From positions 672,001-736,000 of the forward strand of contig OZ242326.1 of assembly GCA_965208325.1 (NCBI GenBank): a stretch of 64,000 nt of DNA. The letters run 5' to 3'. The DNA comes from Candidatus Poribacteria bacterium (GTDB lineage: Bacteria; Poribacteria; WGA-4E; PCPOR2b). The position numbers are program-made. Shown here one piece after another: positions 35,301-41,300 of this stretch (position 1 is the stretch's first letter; every line of letters starts with the position of its first letter).

Positions 35301-38300
35301 GAAGTTTGTGATATGAACGTAATCCTCAACTATTAAAAAGTTAATAAATGCAATCGGCGCGCCTTTAGCGCGAGCGACGAGAAAATGGCAGTGTGGATTC
35401 GTCCGGTTTGCGCCCTGCGTAAAGGCAATCTCTGGCCAAGGGAAAGTAAATGATTGGCGTTCAATCTCCAACACAATCGGAAGATCGCTTTGCTGCATAT
35501 GATTAATTTGAATGTCGATTGGAGGTAGATTTACGTTGACAACTTTCAACTTGGGGTTCTATCCTATTTCAGCCTTGATTCGCCTCGCCGAACGCTCAAT
35601 CTCACTGCTTCATTGTAGCCCCAAGATGTCCTCCTGTCAATCCTGTTATGCAGAGTTGTTAACACGGTAAACGATGGAAATGCTTGACAGACAGACGATA
35701 TAGAAACTAAAATTTGGTGAATGCGAATGCGTTCAGAAAGATAGGCTGACCAAAGCAAATTCTAGCGTTCGATTCGTTATCTCCACGGCATAATAACATC
35801 CAAATTACTCAGAGAGGGATAATTGCAATTTGGGTTGTAATTAATCATGATTTCTCCGGGAATTCCCCCTGTATCTGGAATTGTCAAAAAAGGAGCGTGG
35901 GTTTAATTTACTAATAAAAAGGTAACCAATATGACACCTACACCTGTCCTAGTGTCTTGGTCATCAGGTAAAGACTCCGCATGGGCGCTCTACACGCTGC
36001 GCAATCAGCCAGAACGTTATGACGTCCGCGGAATATTTACTACGATAACTAGAACATTTGATAGGGTTTCAATTCATTCTACACCATCGTGGATTTTAGA
36101 GCAGCAAGCCCAGAGATTGGACCTACCGCTGTACGAGATTCCTATCCCGTATCCCTGCTCTAACTCACAGTATGAGTCCGCAATGAGAGCGTTCCTTAAT
36201 CAAATTCAGGAACTGCCCGCGGATATCGCCGCGTCACATCTTGCATTTGGAGACCTCTTCCTAGAGGACATTCGGAAGTATCGCGAGGATAAACTGCGCG
36301 GGACGGGCTTCACACCGATTTTCCCTGTATGGGGGCAAGACACCACGCTACTTGCTCGAAGGATGATTGAGTCGAGAATGCGGGCGATTGTTACTGCGCT
36401 TAATCCAACCATGATACCAGCAGAGTTCGCCGGCAGATGGTTCGATTCCAACTTTCTAGCGGACTTACCGGAGGAAGTAGACCCGCTTGGCGAGAACGGA
36501 GAGTTTCATACGTGTGTCGTTGATGGTCCGATGTTCAGCAGCGCTATTCCAGCCAAACCCGGAAGAATTGTAGAGCGAAAAATTGCCGCCGCGTCAAATG
36601 AAGGTGATGACCTTGACAACGCCGGCAATGACTCTCCGGCGTACGTCTACGCTGACGTAATTCCATTGACCTAATGCTTTCCTACCAAATTCCGCAACAA
36701 GCTGTTGCTCCAAGCCGCCATTGTCTGATCTGAAACTTAGGAAGGCAACACGTATCGTATGAACCTCCGTTGGTTTTGTCCACGGATTGCCGCGTATTGG
36801 TAACGAAGAACATTCCCTCGCGATATTAGTTTTGTGGGGGGATTACGGTCGACAATGTCTCGATGAGTTCGTCTAGGTACACGTGCCGAAAGAACTCTGA
36901 AAGCCGCTTCTGTCTCGGTTTCATCGGGAGCAATAAAAAATCGGAACGGCTAACTTGGATGGTTTCAAATACCATGCGGTAGGCGTGACTTGTGGCGTAG
37001 CCAACAACCAGCGCATAATAGTCGGCATATTTATCGAGATAGGCGTTGAACCTATCGGCGCCCAACTGGATTTGCGCGATGTTTCTGGGAGACAACTGGA
37101 AATCGTAGCGCACGACGGGTTCTTCAGTTTCAAATTCTTCAGGTACTGGCCCGTAAAGCCCCGAAAGCGTAACCTTGTGAATCTCCTGTTGATTCTCTCC
37201 AAAAGCCGCTTGAAGCCTAGTGTTGATGATAGCGTGTGTACGAGACAGCGAATACGGCTTTTTCCCCGCACAGGGTATTGACAAAAGAACCTTCGTGTCC
37301 CTAGGGGGTACATAACTATCTGGAATGACAAAGGAATCTGGTGTGTAATTCAGCGAGAGGCTCCTCGCTTCTTGGCTCGTAGTCTGGAAGAGTTCCAGTT
37401 GATTGGGGTTCCTCTTACCGGCGCGCCGGTTTTCTGAGGTAGGGGCTGCCGCAATCGTTCTCGCCATTCGGCTGGCAAAAGATTCATCGTTCGCCATCAA
37501 CCAGTCGATAGCCGCACGTATGCCGCGGCCAGATGAGGCATGCCGGCATATTTCTTCCAGCGCATCATCGGCTTCAATCGCACGTTTCATGCGTGACAGC
37601 AACTCTGTTTCCAACTCGAGATTGTGCAAGGCGATCGCCGCATAATATTCGCTCTTATATTTTCCGGTCGAGGTCCGTTTATAGCTTGCCGCTTCCATTA
37701 AGGCGCCCTGCATCTCATCAAGCGAAACCTCGCTGCATATTCGGCACGTACAAGTTAGCTCATCCAACTCCATTAGTTTTCGCTTTGCTCGGGTCAATGG
37801 ATCCGCATAGTTGAGGCCGCGCGCCGACTGAATGTAGCTTGTGCTGTCAAAGCTATCAATTCCCATGTATGCCAGGATAGGCGCGAGTTCGCCTGAGACC
37901 CCGAATGCGTGGATGGGCGTATGCGGGCGTGCTGAATCCGGAATTGCCCTTTGAACCCCGCAGATTCGTTCGAGCACCTCCGAATCCTGCTTCCCGCGCA
38001 GCGGCACTAAGGAGCCGATCGCAAGCCCGAATGCGGGCAGCACGCCCGTAAGACGGTCAAAAACCCTTTTGACATAATCTTCAATATCCGACTGAGACTG
38101 CCCATGGCAGCATACGTATAAAAAGGGCGGTTGCGCTTTGGTTGAGAGCAAAGTTCCTACGCGGCAGGCGTTCTCCAAACTGAGGCTCATCCGTTTTTCG
38201 GCTTCCGAGCGTTCTAACCCCGGCGGTAACGGATAATCTAAGGAAGCGAAGATTTCTCCGCCAACGTCCTCTTGGAGCGCAAGAATATCATCGGCTTCGG

Positions 38301-41300
38301 TCTCTTTTTCAATACCAAATTCCGTCAGGTCCAACCCCGCGTTGTAAAGCAGCTTAAATCCGCCGGAGTCGAGAAACAGCGGGGCATTGTAGGCACCGTT
38401 TACCTCTTGGTACCATTCACGAATGGATTTATTTCGCCACTTCGCTAAGATTTTGCCATTGATGGGAAAGTCTAGAAAGTGGAGGACTTGTGATAACATC
38501 GGCGTGTCGCGCTTCATTAAATCACGGAGCAGATATTTCCATAGTCCGCCGCCGCGCGGAGTAGAGCCGGTCATAAATGAAACCACCGGATACAAAATCG
38601 GTGTTGACAGTGGTGATAAAACTTCGCCATTCCGTAGCAATTGAAGTTCGCCAATTCTGCCGTTTTTTCTTTGAACAATCGTATGGTAGGTTGGGGTTGC
38701 GGTCATAGTAGGACGTTTTTATAACAGTGCATTAAAGGGTAAGGACGCAACGGAATTGGACGGTAATTTTTTACACTGGCGAATCACAAGGTAAACACGC
38801 GGTTAGGTGCGTTTTTCATATGGAGAATTTAAAATCACTTGCGCAATTTAGCGTCGGCGAACTTGCGGGATGCGCACAAGTAAAGACAACGGTCATGTTG
38901 CGGGGCGATGGGCGTCGTTAAGATGGCACGCTCGCCCTCTATCGTCTCACTGACTGCGTTGGACTCAGGAACGGGGTTTTGAGCATGCCCCAAACTGTCT
39001 GCCATTGAAATTCATCGAATTCAGATAGCCCTAGTTCAATGCTCCTCGGCTGCTCTTTCAATCGAACCGTTCTTGCGACTCGATCCCAGACTGAAAAGAT
39101 GCTCGAATAGTTAGAGTCGGTTTCCGGCTGAAATCGGGAGTGATGCACGCGGTGCATATTGGGAGAGACGAGTAACGCTCGAAGGCAGCGATCGTATTTT
39201 TCAGGCAAGTTAACGTTGCTATGATGGAATTGTATCACCGGGAGAAGAATCAGCTCATACAGGATGACTTGCCACAAGTCTAGTCCTATCAAAGGGATGA
39301 CCCCAAGCCTCAAGATTGACGAGATTACCAGTTCGCCGGTGTGAAAACGCGTGGCGGTCGTCACATCCATGTTGGGGTCGCTGTGATGCATTCGATGGAA
39401 ACGCCAAAGGAATGGAATAGCATGATTGGCGCGGTGCCACAAATACATCCAGCTGTCAAACACTAGAATGGCAATTAACGTCTCTGCCCAGATTGGCAAA
39501 TTCAAAGCGTGCAACAATCCGATGCCGCGTTCATGGCTCCAGCCAGCAACCATGGCGGTCAAGCCGGAAAAGGCAAATCCGATAATCGCCGTGTTTATTA
39601 TGGCAATCGACAGGTTGCGTCCAGCGTGCCGAACCCGATGTCGGCGTTCCCGGAACAGCGGCAGCCAAGTTTCTACACACCAAAGAATCAGTAAAACAGC
39701 GATTCCCAATAGCGTCTTGGTCCCGCTAAGCGTTGCTGCGAAATCCATTTTCCTACCCTAAGGTTGAGCCCAAGCCTATCTGTGCGTGCTCGCCGTTCTA
39801 TTCGGTCATATGATTCGCACCGAAAAGTAAAGTGCAATGGGTTGTGGTATGACCTATTTTCACTCTCCAATCACAACGCCGTATTGGGCGACAACTGCGC
39901 CTCTGTGAATGCCTTGATAATGCAAGTGCCGCTCACCAACGATTGACTGCGTGCTCTGGACTTCGACGGTACCGATCACATCTCCCATGGCGTTTTCGTC
40001 AACATCCCAGCAGCAGAAGGGTTTAATGGTGTTGTGTAGTTGCCTGAGTATATTTGCATGCCTGTCACGAATCACGATGTTTACCATTGCATCTGCCTCA
40101 TCAACGTTCAAGAACCGAAACCAGTCGTGCGACCCGGTGTGGATTTCGGGGAAAAAGAGGTGCCGCCCAACATGGCCTCCCTCCGCAGATGCACCCGGGA
40201 GATCGACTATACTTGTCCCGCTGTGCATATGGCGTTCCGCTGCAATGGACTCGTCGCTCCGAGCTTCAAGGGAAGATTTTATTTTGATTGCATCCATATC
40301 AGGCGTCCAGCATTCAAATGAGCCAAGAGTCTGTTCGTCCGACCATACAGGGTTACCCGTGCCATCCTCTCTTGCTATGAGCGTAACTTTTGCTTCTTCC
40401 TGCCCAACATTCACAACAATTGCCCAATCGTTCCATGCGGGCCCAACTTCAGGGAAGTAAAGTGTGGTTGGACCGTCTGAAATAACCTGCCCGAATTGCC
40501 CCACGGACGTCTGTCCACCCTGATAGTGCAGATGCCGTTCGCCAACAATGAGTTGCGTACTCTGCACTTCGACAGTTCCAACCACATTTCCCATGGCCTC
40601 CTCCGCGAGATCCCAAGTACAAAGCGGTGGTATCTGCCGATGGTGCTGTCTAATAACGTCCCCATTTCTGTTCCGAATTACCATGTTCACCAACGCTTCT
40701 GCTTCCCCAACATTCAAAAATCGGAACCAGTCCCGTGCGCCGGACACCAGTTCTGGGAAAAAAAGACGTAAACCGACAGTTTCATATTCGACCGCTGCAC
40801 CCACAAAATCCATAACATTGGAGCCGCCGTGCATATGCCGCTCTGCAACAATCGGCTGGTCAGCCGTGAGTTGCATGGAGGAATTCTCTCCAATTGCTTC
40901 AACGTTCGGTGTCCAGCATTCAAATGCATCAACCTCCTTCTCCTCGGACCAGGTAGGCTGACCGTTTGCCGGATTCCTCGCGATCGCCAATACTTTAGTG
41001 GGTTCAGTTCCGACATTGACGACCTGTACCCAATCCACCCATGCGGGCCCGAGTTCAGGAAAATAGAGTGTTGTTGCTCCTGGCATCGTTACATCTCCTA
41101 AAAATTAGATACACATATTACCAATGTCTCGGCGTAGAACATAGTCAGCTAAATTTATCTCCTATCGAATTGCGATGGGATTGCCCGGCGACCCCGTCGC
41201 GCCCTTGAGTCTCAGCGGGGAAAAAACAAAAGCGAATTCGTACACTTTGTCTCGCACCAAGTCTTCAGTAATCAGGTTTTCAAGGTTGTAGATGCCGTTT

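Follow-up and report, generated by a model that had tools for sequence, protein, structure and literature searches.

A fused TGT-DUF5591 protein of Candidatus Poribacteria, a possible writer of 7-deazaguanine bases with DNA as its likeliest substrate

Which nucleic acid is modified by a bacterial protein that joins a tRNA-guanine transglycosylase (TGT) domain of archaeal affinity to DUF5591, a domain of the archaeal archaeosine synthase ArcS? The question is raised by gene g00596 of a sponge-symbiont bacterium, Candidatus Poribacteria, whose genome consists of a single contig of 4.7 Mb. The gene lies on the minus strand of the window, the stretch of 64,000 nucleotides that was analysed (36826..38706, stop codon included; all protein features below are on the same strand). 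According to the ORF list and its translation, it starts with ATG and encodes a protein of 626 amino acids, P0001.

Pfam reproduced exactly the two domains given in a preliminary description of the locus, TGT at residues 106-384 (E 7.4e-14, 52 bits, cut-off 26.3) and DUF5591 at residues 463-583 (E 2.8e-13, 50.4 bits, cut-off 26). The PUA domain was rightly said to be missing: no third Pfam family was found in P0001, nor in any of the 35 diverse family members, 29-60% identical to the query, that make up alignment A1. By Pfam (PF01702), VIA-align and Foldseek, the TIM-barrel transglycosylase domain with its zinc subdomain spans residues 3-415 (37462..38700), and by Pfam (PF17884), NCBIfam and VIA-align a Rossmann-like DUF5591 domain of the ArcS C1 type spans residues 457-625 (36832..37338). 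They are separated by a predicted disordered linker (residues 420-445; 37372..37449), the sole segment with a pLDDT below 50 in an AF2 model with a mean pLDDT of 91.3 and a pTM of 0.89.

The nearest solved relative by sequence is the ArcTGT of P. horikoshii (1iq8, E 1.4e-15, query residues 106-382), which is also the top Foldseek match of the model (E 3.7e-20), so that the archaeal affinity claimed for the TGT domain holds for both sequence and fold. VIA-align superposed 1iq8 on 346 residues over 3-415 (Z 38.1, rmsd 2.5, 24% identity), ahead of bacterial TGT (Z 31.0), DpdA (7ui4, Z 22.0) and the Cap10-CdnD complex (9ntn_B, Z 19.3). That the TGT half is nearer to a tRNA enzyme than to DpdA counts against a DNA substrate. 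The C-terminal part matches AF0587 (2q07) in the sequence search (E 5e-4) and in fold (Z 16.2, rmsd 2.3, 137 residues of the DUF5591 domain), and positions 287-404 of the NCBIfam ArcS-alpha model align with residues 463-586.

The motifs named in the preliminary description (FLDSGGF, GIDSFDSTSY, CTCRIC and PCAGKKPYSLSRTH) are all present, at coordinates checked by translation. DSGG (residues 113-116; 38359..38370) was placed by phmmer alignment to 1iq8, GIDSFDSTSY (residues 282-291; 37834..37863) aligns with GVDLFDSASY of that protein, and the zinc-binding site, formed by C319, C321 and C324 of CTCRIC with H361 of an HN pair (37621..37752), aligns with its CxCxxC...HN. D113 thereby falls on the first catalytic Asp of ArcTGT and D287 on the nucleophile Asp of the TGT family, residues whose roles are described for DpdA (PMC10164549), and the TGT half retains all catalytic residues. 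The ArcS-core motif PCAGKKPYSLSRTH (37234..37275) reads P478, C479, x3, K483, P484, Y485, x2, S488, x2, H491; PMC10516641 and PMC5699537 name PC-x3-KPY-x2-S-x2-H as the motif specific to ArcS C1 (PF17884/DUF5591), in agreement with the earlier assignment.

P0001 cannot be equated with curated TgtA, ArcS or DpdA, as its NCBIfam scores fall below all three cut-offs (TgtA 86.6 bits, cut-off 350; ArcS alpha, NF040592, 84.6, cut-off 440; DpdA 21.3, cut-off 200), and the same is true of all 35 relatives scanned. In place of archaeal chemistry strayed into a bacterium stands a set of fused proteins that form a family of their own, common to archaea and bacteria. Its breadth also resolves the caveat that all 120 homologues listed were close relatives: 649 cluster representatives match, with identities down to about 30%. 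In a quick maximum-likelihood tree (quick search, SH-aLRT support only) the Poribacteria form a clade nested within the family. PF17884 was found in three of 14 control genomes, all three of them archaea.

A recount among the 120 close homologues listed agreed with the earlier figures, DSGG, CxCxxC and the full PC-x3-KPY-x2-S-x2-H being kept in 120 of 120; D.FDS is kept in 118. In alignment A1, all 35 members of which have TGT and 34 of which have DUF5591, D113, S114, G116, D157, G282, D287, C319, C321, C324, H361, N362, P484 and Y485 are invariant (35/35), and G115, C479, K483 and S488 are kept in at least 90%. Both predicted active sites are thus conserved across the wide family. The invariance or near-invariance of the TGT Asp pair, the zinc site and the ArcS-core motif supports an enzyme that would insert a 7-deazaguanine and tailor it in two steps. 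The gene is under strong purifying selection, with dN/dS of 0.09-0.13 against five Poribacteria orthologues, including one pair that differs in the presence of an adjoining methylase.

As stated previously, the ordinary bacterial queuosine genes are found elsewhere in the genome by profile score (Tgt 537 bits, QueC 258, QueF 111, QueA 450). A PTPS/QueD-like gene is also present, as is a QueE-like gene by tblastn (40% identity). The missing RaSEA-like partner is borne out, as TIGR01210, which we take to be the RaSEA model, reaches 21.9 bits in the genome where its cut-off is 212. The ArcS of T. kodakarensis is inactive without RaSEA, which counts against the reading preferred below. The window copy stands alone among the housekeeping genes ArgRS, RsfS and NadD, and within about 8 kb of it no preQ0 gene, restriction partner or DpdB/ParB-like ATPase was found, a further point against DNA as the substrate.

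The gene belongs to the accessory genome of the phylum: patchy, sometimes duplicated or decayed. Homologues in Poribacteria are 53-95% identical to P0001, and full-length ones occur in 54 of 176 genomes (rows with E <= 1e-160); genus g17 has the gene in 0 of 40 genomes and genus g18 in 12 of 65, two diverged copies coexist in three Poribacteria genomes, and there are several broken copies. Comparison with close relatives revealed an empty cassette slot of 132 bp at the 5' end of the gene (38721..38852, no strand assigned). A contig of run X1 shows no difference from the window, one of run X5 (98% identical) has 2013 different letters between 38720 and 38853, and a 92% relative (L002) carries 1541 bp with a PF01555 methylase in this position. 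The slot is a variable restriction-modification cassette site, empty in the window, and the methylase of the relatives has no orthologue in the window genome. In 15 of 21 Poribacteria loci the 5' end of the gene is adjoined by a type II methylase, alone or together with a restriction enzyme, and in 20 of 20 further loci of other lineages the methylase is missing (present in 15 of 41 overall); this adjacency may reflect a mere island hot spot. In a second Poribacteria lineage, six of seven loci have a QueD-like gene, intact or as remnants, immediately upstream.

The distant relatives (31-51% identity, some on haloarchaeal megaplasmids) were examined in 73 metagenome loci, which collapse into 45 groups at 85% identity. 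PreQ0 supply genes (QueC, QueD, QueE or YhhQ) occur in the available flank of 14 groups, genes that act on DNA or in defence occur in 34 (a raw count with no random-gene baseline), and either kind in 37; in the 30 groups with at least five flanking genes the figures are 13, 27 and 29. The flanking genes include a DpdJ-like helicase (490 bits), DpdK-like PLD, HerA, PglZ-like, PbeA/PbeC, GmrSD, ParB, Mrr-like and GHKL proteins; weak Pfam matches underlie some of the labels (STAND-like, BrxC-like). Full-length homologues are carried by megaplasmids of Haladaptatus and Natrinema, and the haloarchaeal members on megaplasmids adjoin helicases and nucleases. The nearest relatives outside Poribacteria (L038, L039 and L050, 49-51% identity) have the non-defence neighbours DprA or an ABC transporter, which counts against DNA.

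The best explanation, to which we give about an even chance, is that P0001 is a single-chain, two-step 7-deazaguanine writer acting most probably on the DNA of the cell itself. The N-terminal domain (D113, D287 and the zinc site C319/C321/C324/H361) would exchange a guanine of the nucleic acid for preQ0 via a covalent enzyme-sugar intermediate, the preQ0 presumably coming from the cell's own QueC, QueD-like and QueE-like enzymes. The C-terminal ArcS core (PC-x3-KPY-x2-S-x2-H) would then attach an amine to the nitrile that this base carries, producing an amidine. The amidine may be archaeosine (G+/dG+) or an amino-acid adduct akin to preQ0-lysine; an amide is a further candidate product. If the enzyme behaves like the ArcS of T. 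kodakarensis, this step may also bar the reverse exchange. The Poribacteria genes would form a solitary, domesticated side branch of a family whose members in other settings may provide the modification function of Dpd-like, BRC-like and GHKL-linked defence islands. The DNA target and the defence-system origin are suggested by the neighbourhoods of the distant relatives together with the patchy, duplicated and decayed distribution in the phylum. The preliminary description had proposed an archaeosine-type modification of tRNA or DNA; its domain reading stands, and its target can be sharpened towards DNA. If so, a fused bacterial enzyme would write an archaeosine-like base into DNA and not into tRNA.

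tRNA, or another RNA, is the less likely target, a doubtful but serious one: the ArcTGT-like domain would place preQ0 in a bacterial tRNA, perhaps at G15 or at a different guanine of the D-arm, and the ArcS core would convert it in place, giving an archaeosine-type tRNA. ArcTGT is both the closest solved structure and the closest curated model, the best-known bearer of DUF5591 is the tRNA-acting ArcS (as presented in PMC10516641 and PMC5699537), and the PUA domain of ArcTGT is dispensable for archaeosine formation according to the title of Sabina and Soll (2006). The solitary copy amid housekeeping genes, without restriction partner, the strong purifying selection and a TmcA-type tRNA acetyltransferase adjoining the relative L066 point the same way. 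Against a tRNA substrate stand the patchy distribution within genera, with duplicates and broken copies, the lack of all three tRNA-binding C-terminal domains of ArcTGT/ArcS, the megaplasmid contexts of the haloarchaeal members, the 34 of 45 groups with DNA helicases, nucleases or restriction-modification genes, and the phage ArcS2, described as a PUA-less DUF5591 protein working on DNA (PMC10516641).

An effector that recognises 7-deazaguanine-modified or unmodified invader DNA and swaps or traps its bases, with no marking of self, is improbable. Location in defence islands, a host copy without restriction partner and DNA glycosylases presented as antiviral defence against modified phage DNA in a 2025 preprint (10.1101/2025.10.29.685425) would suit it, but the linkage to preQ0 supply genes and the YhhQ transporter fits the writing of a mark and not its removal, and the ArcS-core domain has no obvious effector role. 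Least probable is the deazaguanylation of a protein or small molecule, as by the TGT-like Cap10 of type IV CBASS: such modification by defence proteins resembling QueC and TGT is described (PMC13329287) and Cap10 does match the model, but below ArcTGT, bacterial TGT, QTRT2 and DpdA, and none of the annotated loci shows a neighbour of the CD-NTase, Cap9 or QatABD type.

Compared with known systems, ArcTGT/TgtA (1IQ8) shares both catalytic Asp residues and a zinc site of the form CxCxxC...H, and its pocket pair V197/V198, whose meaning is discussed in PMC5699537, aligns with L233/V234 of P0001; however, P0001 has DUF5591 in place of the tRNA-binding domains C1, C2 and PUA. Canonical ArcS (NF040592) likewise has a TGT-like domain before a C1/DUF5591 domain with the full motif, but P0001 lacks C2 and PUA and its genome a RaSEA-type gene. 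In the Dpd system (DpdA/DpdB/DpdC with DpdD-K), a TGT-superfamily enzyme and queuosine-pathway preQ0 are described as marking DNA (PMC10164549; PMC5699537), and relatives of P0001 adjoin DpdJ-like helicases and DpdK-like PLD nucleases; DpdC tailoring yields an amide, whereas the ArcS core of P0001 would yield an amidine, and the window has no DpdB or restriction genes. BREX-related capture (BRC) systems include a 'TGT' proposed to mark self DNA, with dPreQ0 expected as the end product, in a 2026 paper (PMC12839542) from whose main text 'ArcS', 'archaeosine' and 'queuosine' are absent. The window differs in having no BRC genes, but four relatives (L040, L058, L092 and L109), grouped with PglZ-like, HerA and large AAA/STAND-like proteins, share the gene order described there, and the BRC TGT is a candidate member of the P0001 family.

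A published precedent is Vibrio phage nt-1, in which DpdA2 alone is reported to produce dPreQ0 in DNA and, together with the DUF5591-only ArcS2, dG+ (PMC10516641); no other PUA-less DUF5591 protein is known to have been tested. Neither domain of P0001 found a tblastn match at E <= 1e-3 in 50,697 phage records, and a search of IMG/VR gave only four weak, TGT-only matches. The nt-1 pair differs in consisting of two separate viral proteins and not one cellular polypeptide, and in having a DpdA TGT where the TGT half of P0001 is ArcTGT-like. What the two would share is the order of the chemistry, reported for the phage and proposed for P0001: insertion of preQ0 by a TGT-family enzyme, followed by conversion by a PUA-less DUF5591 domain with the PC-x3-KPY motif, without RaSEA.

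The fusion gene (window 36826..38706, minus strand) encodes an intact open reading frame of 626 amino acids in which both domains named in the preliminary description, TGT at residues 106-384 and DUF5591 at residues 463-583, were recovered above their curated Pfam cut-offs; the Pfam scan found no third family in the protein. The PF01702 match scored 52 bits against a cut-off of 26.3, and TIGR00449 was reached as well (56.6 bits, cut-off 47.6). Translation confirmed the coordinates of all four motifs that had been quoted, and the attribution of PC-X3-KPY-X2-S-X2-H to archaeal ArcS proved right: passages in PMC10516641 and PMC5699537 describe it as specific to the C1 domain of ArcS (Pfam DUF5591). 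Among the close homologues listed, DSGG, CxCxxC and the full ArcS motif are kept in 120 of 120, and D.FDS in 118 of 120. An AlphaFold2 model based on a 35-sequence alignment (the query and 34 diverse family members) was confident (mean pLDDT 91.3, pTM 0.89) and displayed two domains and a disordered linker at residues 420-445. The fold ranking was taken from a VIA wide search; the Foldseek list was dominated by redundant Z. mobilis TGT entries. Residues 3-415 of the model matched Pyrococcus horikoshii ArcTGT 1iq8 (Z 38.1, rmsd 2.5 over 346 residues), followed for the N-terminal domain by bacterial TGT 3unt (Z 31.0), QTRT2 6fv5 (Z 27.6), the DNA insertase DpdA 7ui4 (Z 22.0) and Cap10 9ntn_B (Z 19.3), and residues 457-625 matched AF0587 2q07 (Z 16.2, 137 residues). 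In a phmmer alignment, D113, D287, the CxCxxC cysteines C319, C321 and C324, and H361 (of an HN pair) coincided with the two catalytic Asp residues and the zinc site of 1iq8.

As judged by curated NCBI models, the fusion protein belongs to the TGT superfamily only and is a member of none of the ArcTGT, ArcS and DpdA families. The TIM-barrel fold, the catalytic Asp pair and the CxCxxC...H zinc site that mark the superfamily are all present. The TgtA equivalog TIGR00432 scored 86.6 bits, below its cut-off of 350, and the C-terminal C1-C2-PUA part of ArcTGT is missing from the fusion protein, whose match to 1iq8 spans only residues 6-373 of that 577-residue chain. The DUF5591/C1 domain with PC-x3-KPY-x2-S-x2-H that is expected of an ArcS is there, and neither ArcS-alpha model was reached (NF040592, 84.6 bits against 440; NF053620, 39.3 bits against 600). 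The DpdA model NF041059 gave 21.3 bits against a cut-off of 200 and the PADLOC DpdA model 20.8 bits. The lack of a PUA domain pointed out in the preliminary description was confirmed: Pfam detected none in the fusion protein or in any of the 35 aligned members. A RaSEA-like partner was likewise not found: TIGR01210, which we take to be the RaSEA radical-SAM family, scored 21.9 bits in the protein's own genome against a cut-off of 212, which was exceeded in 3 of 14 control genomes. The protein displays the features of an uncharacterised family, with both domains in a chain of about 600-700 residues, no PUA and both active sites kept. In source records such proteins are named 'tRNA-guanine transglycosylase', '7-cyano-7-deazaguanine tRNA-ribosyltransferase' or 'DUF5591 domain-containing protein', three names that are probably misleading.

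This family is broad. Searched exhaustively with phmmer, a set of 1.84 billion cluster representatives yielded 649 matches with E <= 1e-3, of which 102 had E <= 1e-30; many of the matches are full-length, with 30-48% identity to the fusion protein. TGT was detected by Pfam in 35 of the 35 aligned members and DUF5591 in 34, and none of the 35 more distant relatives scanned reached the TgtA, ArcS or DpdA cut-offs. Twelve positions (D113, S114, G116, D157, D287, C319, C321, C324, H361, N362, P484 and Y485) are invariant in the 35-sequence alignment, and conservation of C479, K483 and S488 is 90% or higher. The phmmer matches also included a 418-aa protein, P0257, in which a segment resembling TnpB (51 bits with NCBIfam guided_TnpB, short of its cut-off) forms the N-terminal part and is followed by a DUF5591/ArcS-core segment; the protein may be chimeric or the product of a gene-calling error.

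The gene neighbourhoods of distant relatives were analysed at 73 metagenome loci obtained by an alignment-based contig scan and merged at 85% identity into 45 groups; neighbouring ORFs were clustered, and the recurrent ones and the immediate neighbours were annotated, some labels coming from weak matches. Two classes of neighbour stood out. The first comprises supply genes, namely QueC, QueD, QueE and a YhhQ-type transporter (PF02592). The second comprises DNA-directed or defence genes: a DpdJ-like helicase (490 bits), a DpdK-like PLD protein, a GHKL ATPase, HerA with a NurA-like protein, PglZ-like phosphodiesterases, PbeA/PbeC, GmrSD with HEPN, an Mrr-like enzyme, an integrase and, at the single locus L105, a ParB-like protein. 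Supply genes flanked 14 of the 45 groups (13 of the 30 with at least five genes), DNA-directed or defence genes 34 of 45 (27 of 30), and either class 37 of 45 (29 of 30), these being raw counts without a matched background rate for defence neighbours. The eight groups with neither class lie mostly on short contigs, though L039 has 18 genes. A shared locus with single-copy preQ0 genes is unlikely to arise by chance. Full-length homologues (33.7% identity over 96%) also occur on Haladaptatus and Natrinema megaplasmids, next to two further TGT paralogues, a DUF6884 protein, a 1493-aa AAA protein and a protein whose only annotation is 'ATP-binding'. In the haloarchaeal loci (L074, L080, L097, L103 and others, and L136 on a Haladaptatus plasmid), a 650-aa fusion is accompanied by a TGT paralogue of about 415 aa, a DUF6884 protein, a 516-aa GHKL ATPase and sometimes a third TGT paralogue, a gene set that suggests a multi-TGT module. 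DUF6884 was considered as a DpdC and set aside, since its PADLOC matches are weak (20.5 bits) and the BRC paper PMC12839542 gives DpdC as DUF328. A phage origin was also rejected: tblastn of the two domains against 50,697 phage records gave no match, and IMG/VR yielded only four weak, TGT-only matches.

The genome of the window is a single contig of 4.7 Mb, 95.6% complete, with one DUF5591 gene. The ordinary queuosine genes reported for it (bacterial Tgt, QueA, QueC and QueF) were found again, together with QueD-like and QueE-like genes. No DpdB, DpdC or restriction gene was found among the 14 window genes scanned, and the BRC genes PglZ, DUF6079, STAND, DUF4007 and HerA are absent from the window. 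Poribacteria loci fall into three synteny groups with different flanking genes. In 15 of 21 loci, from two lineages, the 5' neighbour of the fusion gene is a cassette with a type II N6/N4 methylase (PF01555, E 1.3e-49), and in six of them a MutH-like restriction enzyme stands between methylase and fusion gene. The cassette is missing from all 20 further loci of two other Poribacteria lineages, and no orthologue of the methylase is present in the genome of the window, so that a functional partnership was rejected and the cassette is regarded as a hot-spot observation only. In the window, the slot is empty: 132 bp (38721-38852) lie directly upstream of the fusion gene where the 92% relative L002 carries a 1541-bp methylase cassette (6446-7986). 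A 98%-identical contig from metagenome run X5, belonging to another study, has 2013 other letters at breakpoints 38720 / 38853, and a contig from run X1 matches the window exactly; the slot is strain-variable. In one of the two lineages without the cassette, a second Poribacteria lineage (L116-L122), a QueD-like (PTPS) gene located 5 bp upstream of the fusion gene, at about 7600-8000 or the mirror position, is intact in two of seven loci and present as frameshifted or fragmentary remnants in four more. This adjacency connects the fusion gene independently with 7-deazaguanine synthesis; the window's genome has an intact, 74%-identical copy at another place (C1:2758767-2759144).

Other neighbours were considered as partners and discarded. 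An archaeal-type PP-loop ATPase (35931-36674, plus strand; 80 bits for Pfam Diphthami_syn_2, and scores far under the cut-offs of the NCBIfam models PAB0415 and Dph6), divergent to the fusion gene and 152 bp from its 3' end, was a candidate amidotransferase; it occurs only in the window and L002 and is missing from the related loci L003 and L016. The downstream GNAT (34986-35549) was weighed as a GNAT-TGT link of the BRC type, and shows no detectable similarity to the GNAT found directly 3' of the gene in another Poribacteria family. All 12 loci of one Poribacteria family (L124-L135) have an Fe-ADH (iron-containing alcohol dehydrogenase) immediately 3' of the fusion gene, an arrangement attributed to inherited synteny. 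Upstream genes differ among these 12 loci despite the constant Fe-ADH, and in L129 and L131 an SNF2 helicase of 1100 aa that also carries a PLD nuclease domain stands upstream of the fusion gene. Two window ORFs, of 408 aa (39860-41086, minus strand) and 951 aa (44803-47658, minus strand), have no Pfam or NCBIfam match; the former is 87-92% conserved in the three closest relatives.

Within the phylum, some match was present in 75 of 176 genomes, many being weak cross-matches to ordinary Tgt, and full-length copies were counted from the search rows (E <= 1e-160) in 54 of 176. The window's family has them in 25 of 29 genomes, a second family in 9 of 11 and a third in none of seven; among genera, g17 has none in 40 genomes and g18 has 12 in 65. 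In three genomes the gene is present twice, with about 66% and 80% identity to the query, and several copies are split or carry stops. Broken second copies were seen in G031, G043, G070 and G151, with an in-frame TAG or TGA, divided between two ORFs or reduced to 46 aa. The dN/dS between the fusion gene and five Poribacteria orthologues is 0.09-0.13. All 21 nearest-relative loci are Poribacteria MAGs, and sponge metagenome runs contain the window stretch, one of them aligned at about 98% identity. A quick ML tree, with SH-aLRT support only, groups the window protein with 19 Poribacteria loci and L037 and nests the Poribacteria clade inside the fusion family; its sister in this tree is a small clade in non-defence contexts, and the next clade out has YhhQ, BRC, DpdJ-like, HerA-NurA and GmrSD neighbours. 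The distribution in Poribacteria is that of an accessory gene and not of a core tRNA enzyme. An action on tRNA or another RNA, which would agree with the archaeal ArcTGT as best fold match, is held to be rather unlikely.

The chances that the fusion protein acts on DNA appear about even. Invader DNA as the target is judged improbable, and protein deazaguanylation more improbable still. In the mechanism proposed, preQ0 would be taken from the host pathway (QueC, QueD-like and QueE-like genes being in the genome), and the TGT domain would exchange guanine for preQ0 with D287 as nucleophile and D113 as acid/base, roles that are suggested by the alignment and by those described for DpdA in PMC10164549. 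The ArcS core may then convert the nitrile into an amidine. Passages of the JBC paper on Thermococcus kodakarensis ArcS describe lysine transfer, with RaSEA required, and state that this transfer keeps ArcTGT from reversing the exchange; because it does, fusing insertion and tailoring in one chain has a rationale. For Methanocaldococcus jannaschii ArcS, use of ammonia, Gln or Asn was reported, and Table 3 of PMC10516641 shows low-level formation of dG+ by phage nt-1 ArcS2 in E. coli with no RaSEA present. We tentatively propose, as possible rather than probable, that the chromosomal DNA of Poribacteria and other carriers of a solitary copy contains an amidine base of the archaeosine type (dG+ or an adduct of preQ0 with an amino acid), written by one polypeptide without a cognate restriction enzyme as an orphan mark for shielding or epigenetics. 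If true, this would be an orphan 7-deazaguanine mark comparable to orphan methylases, which would shield the genome from the many restriction systems of sponge microbiomes or serve an epigenetic role, and the fusion protein would be an accessible model for ArcS chemistry without RaSEA. The archaeosine base made by this chemistry is positively charged.

Of the 7-deazaguanines known in DNA, dPreQ0, dG+ and others come from phages, and dPreQ0 and dADG from bacterial Dpd islands. The literature surveyed yielded no demonstration of an ArcS-type amidine base in cellular DNA, the base being recorded in archaeal tRNA and in viral DNA (one phage pair), and no paper naming a TGT-DUF5591 fusion was found in the literature on ArcS/DUF5591, DpdA/7-deazaguanine and Poribacteria defence outside subscription-only papers. 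The fusion is a widespread cellular family in which a complete insertion enzyme is joined to an ArcS core; it is located in defence islands and, in sponge symbionts, is a solitary gene under selection. These features point to an additional class of DNA marks in cells, which a single protein would be able to make. The nearest item in print is the TGT of the BRC systems (PMC12839542), an optional component that marks DNA; the gene order of these systems is matched by the relatives L040, L058, L092 and L109 only, and neither 'ArcS' nor 'archaeosine' occurs in the main text of that paper. Compared with the Dpd system, relatives elsewhere have DpdJ/K-like genes, whereas neither DpdB nor DpdC is among the window genes scanned. 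The fusion protein has an ArcTGT-like barrel and stands outside the ArcTGT family. In its predicted way of working, the fusion protein is closest to the viral pair of DpdA2 and ArcS2.
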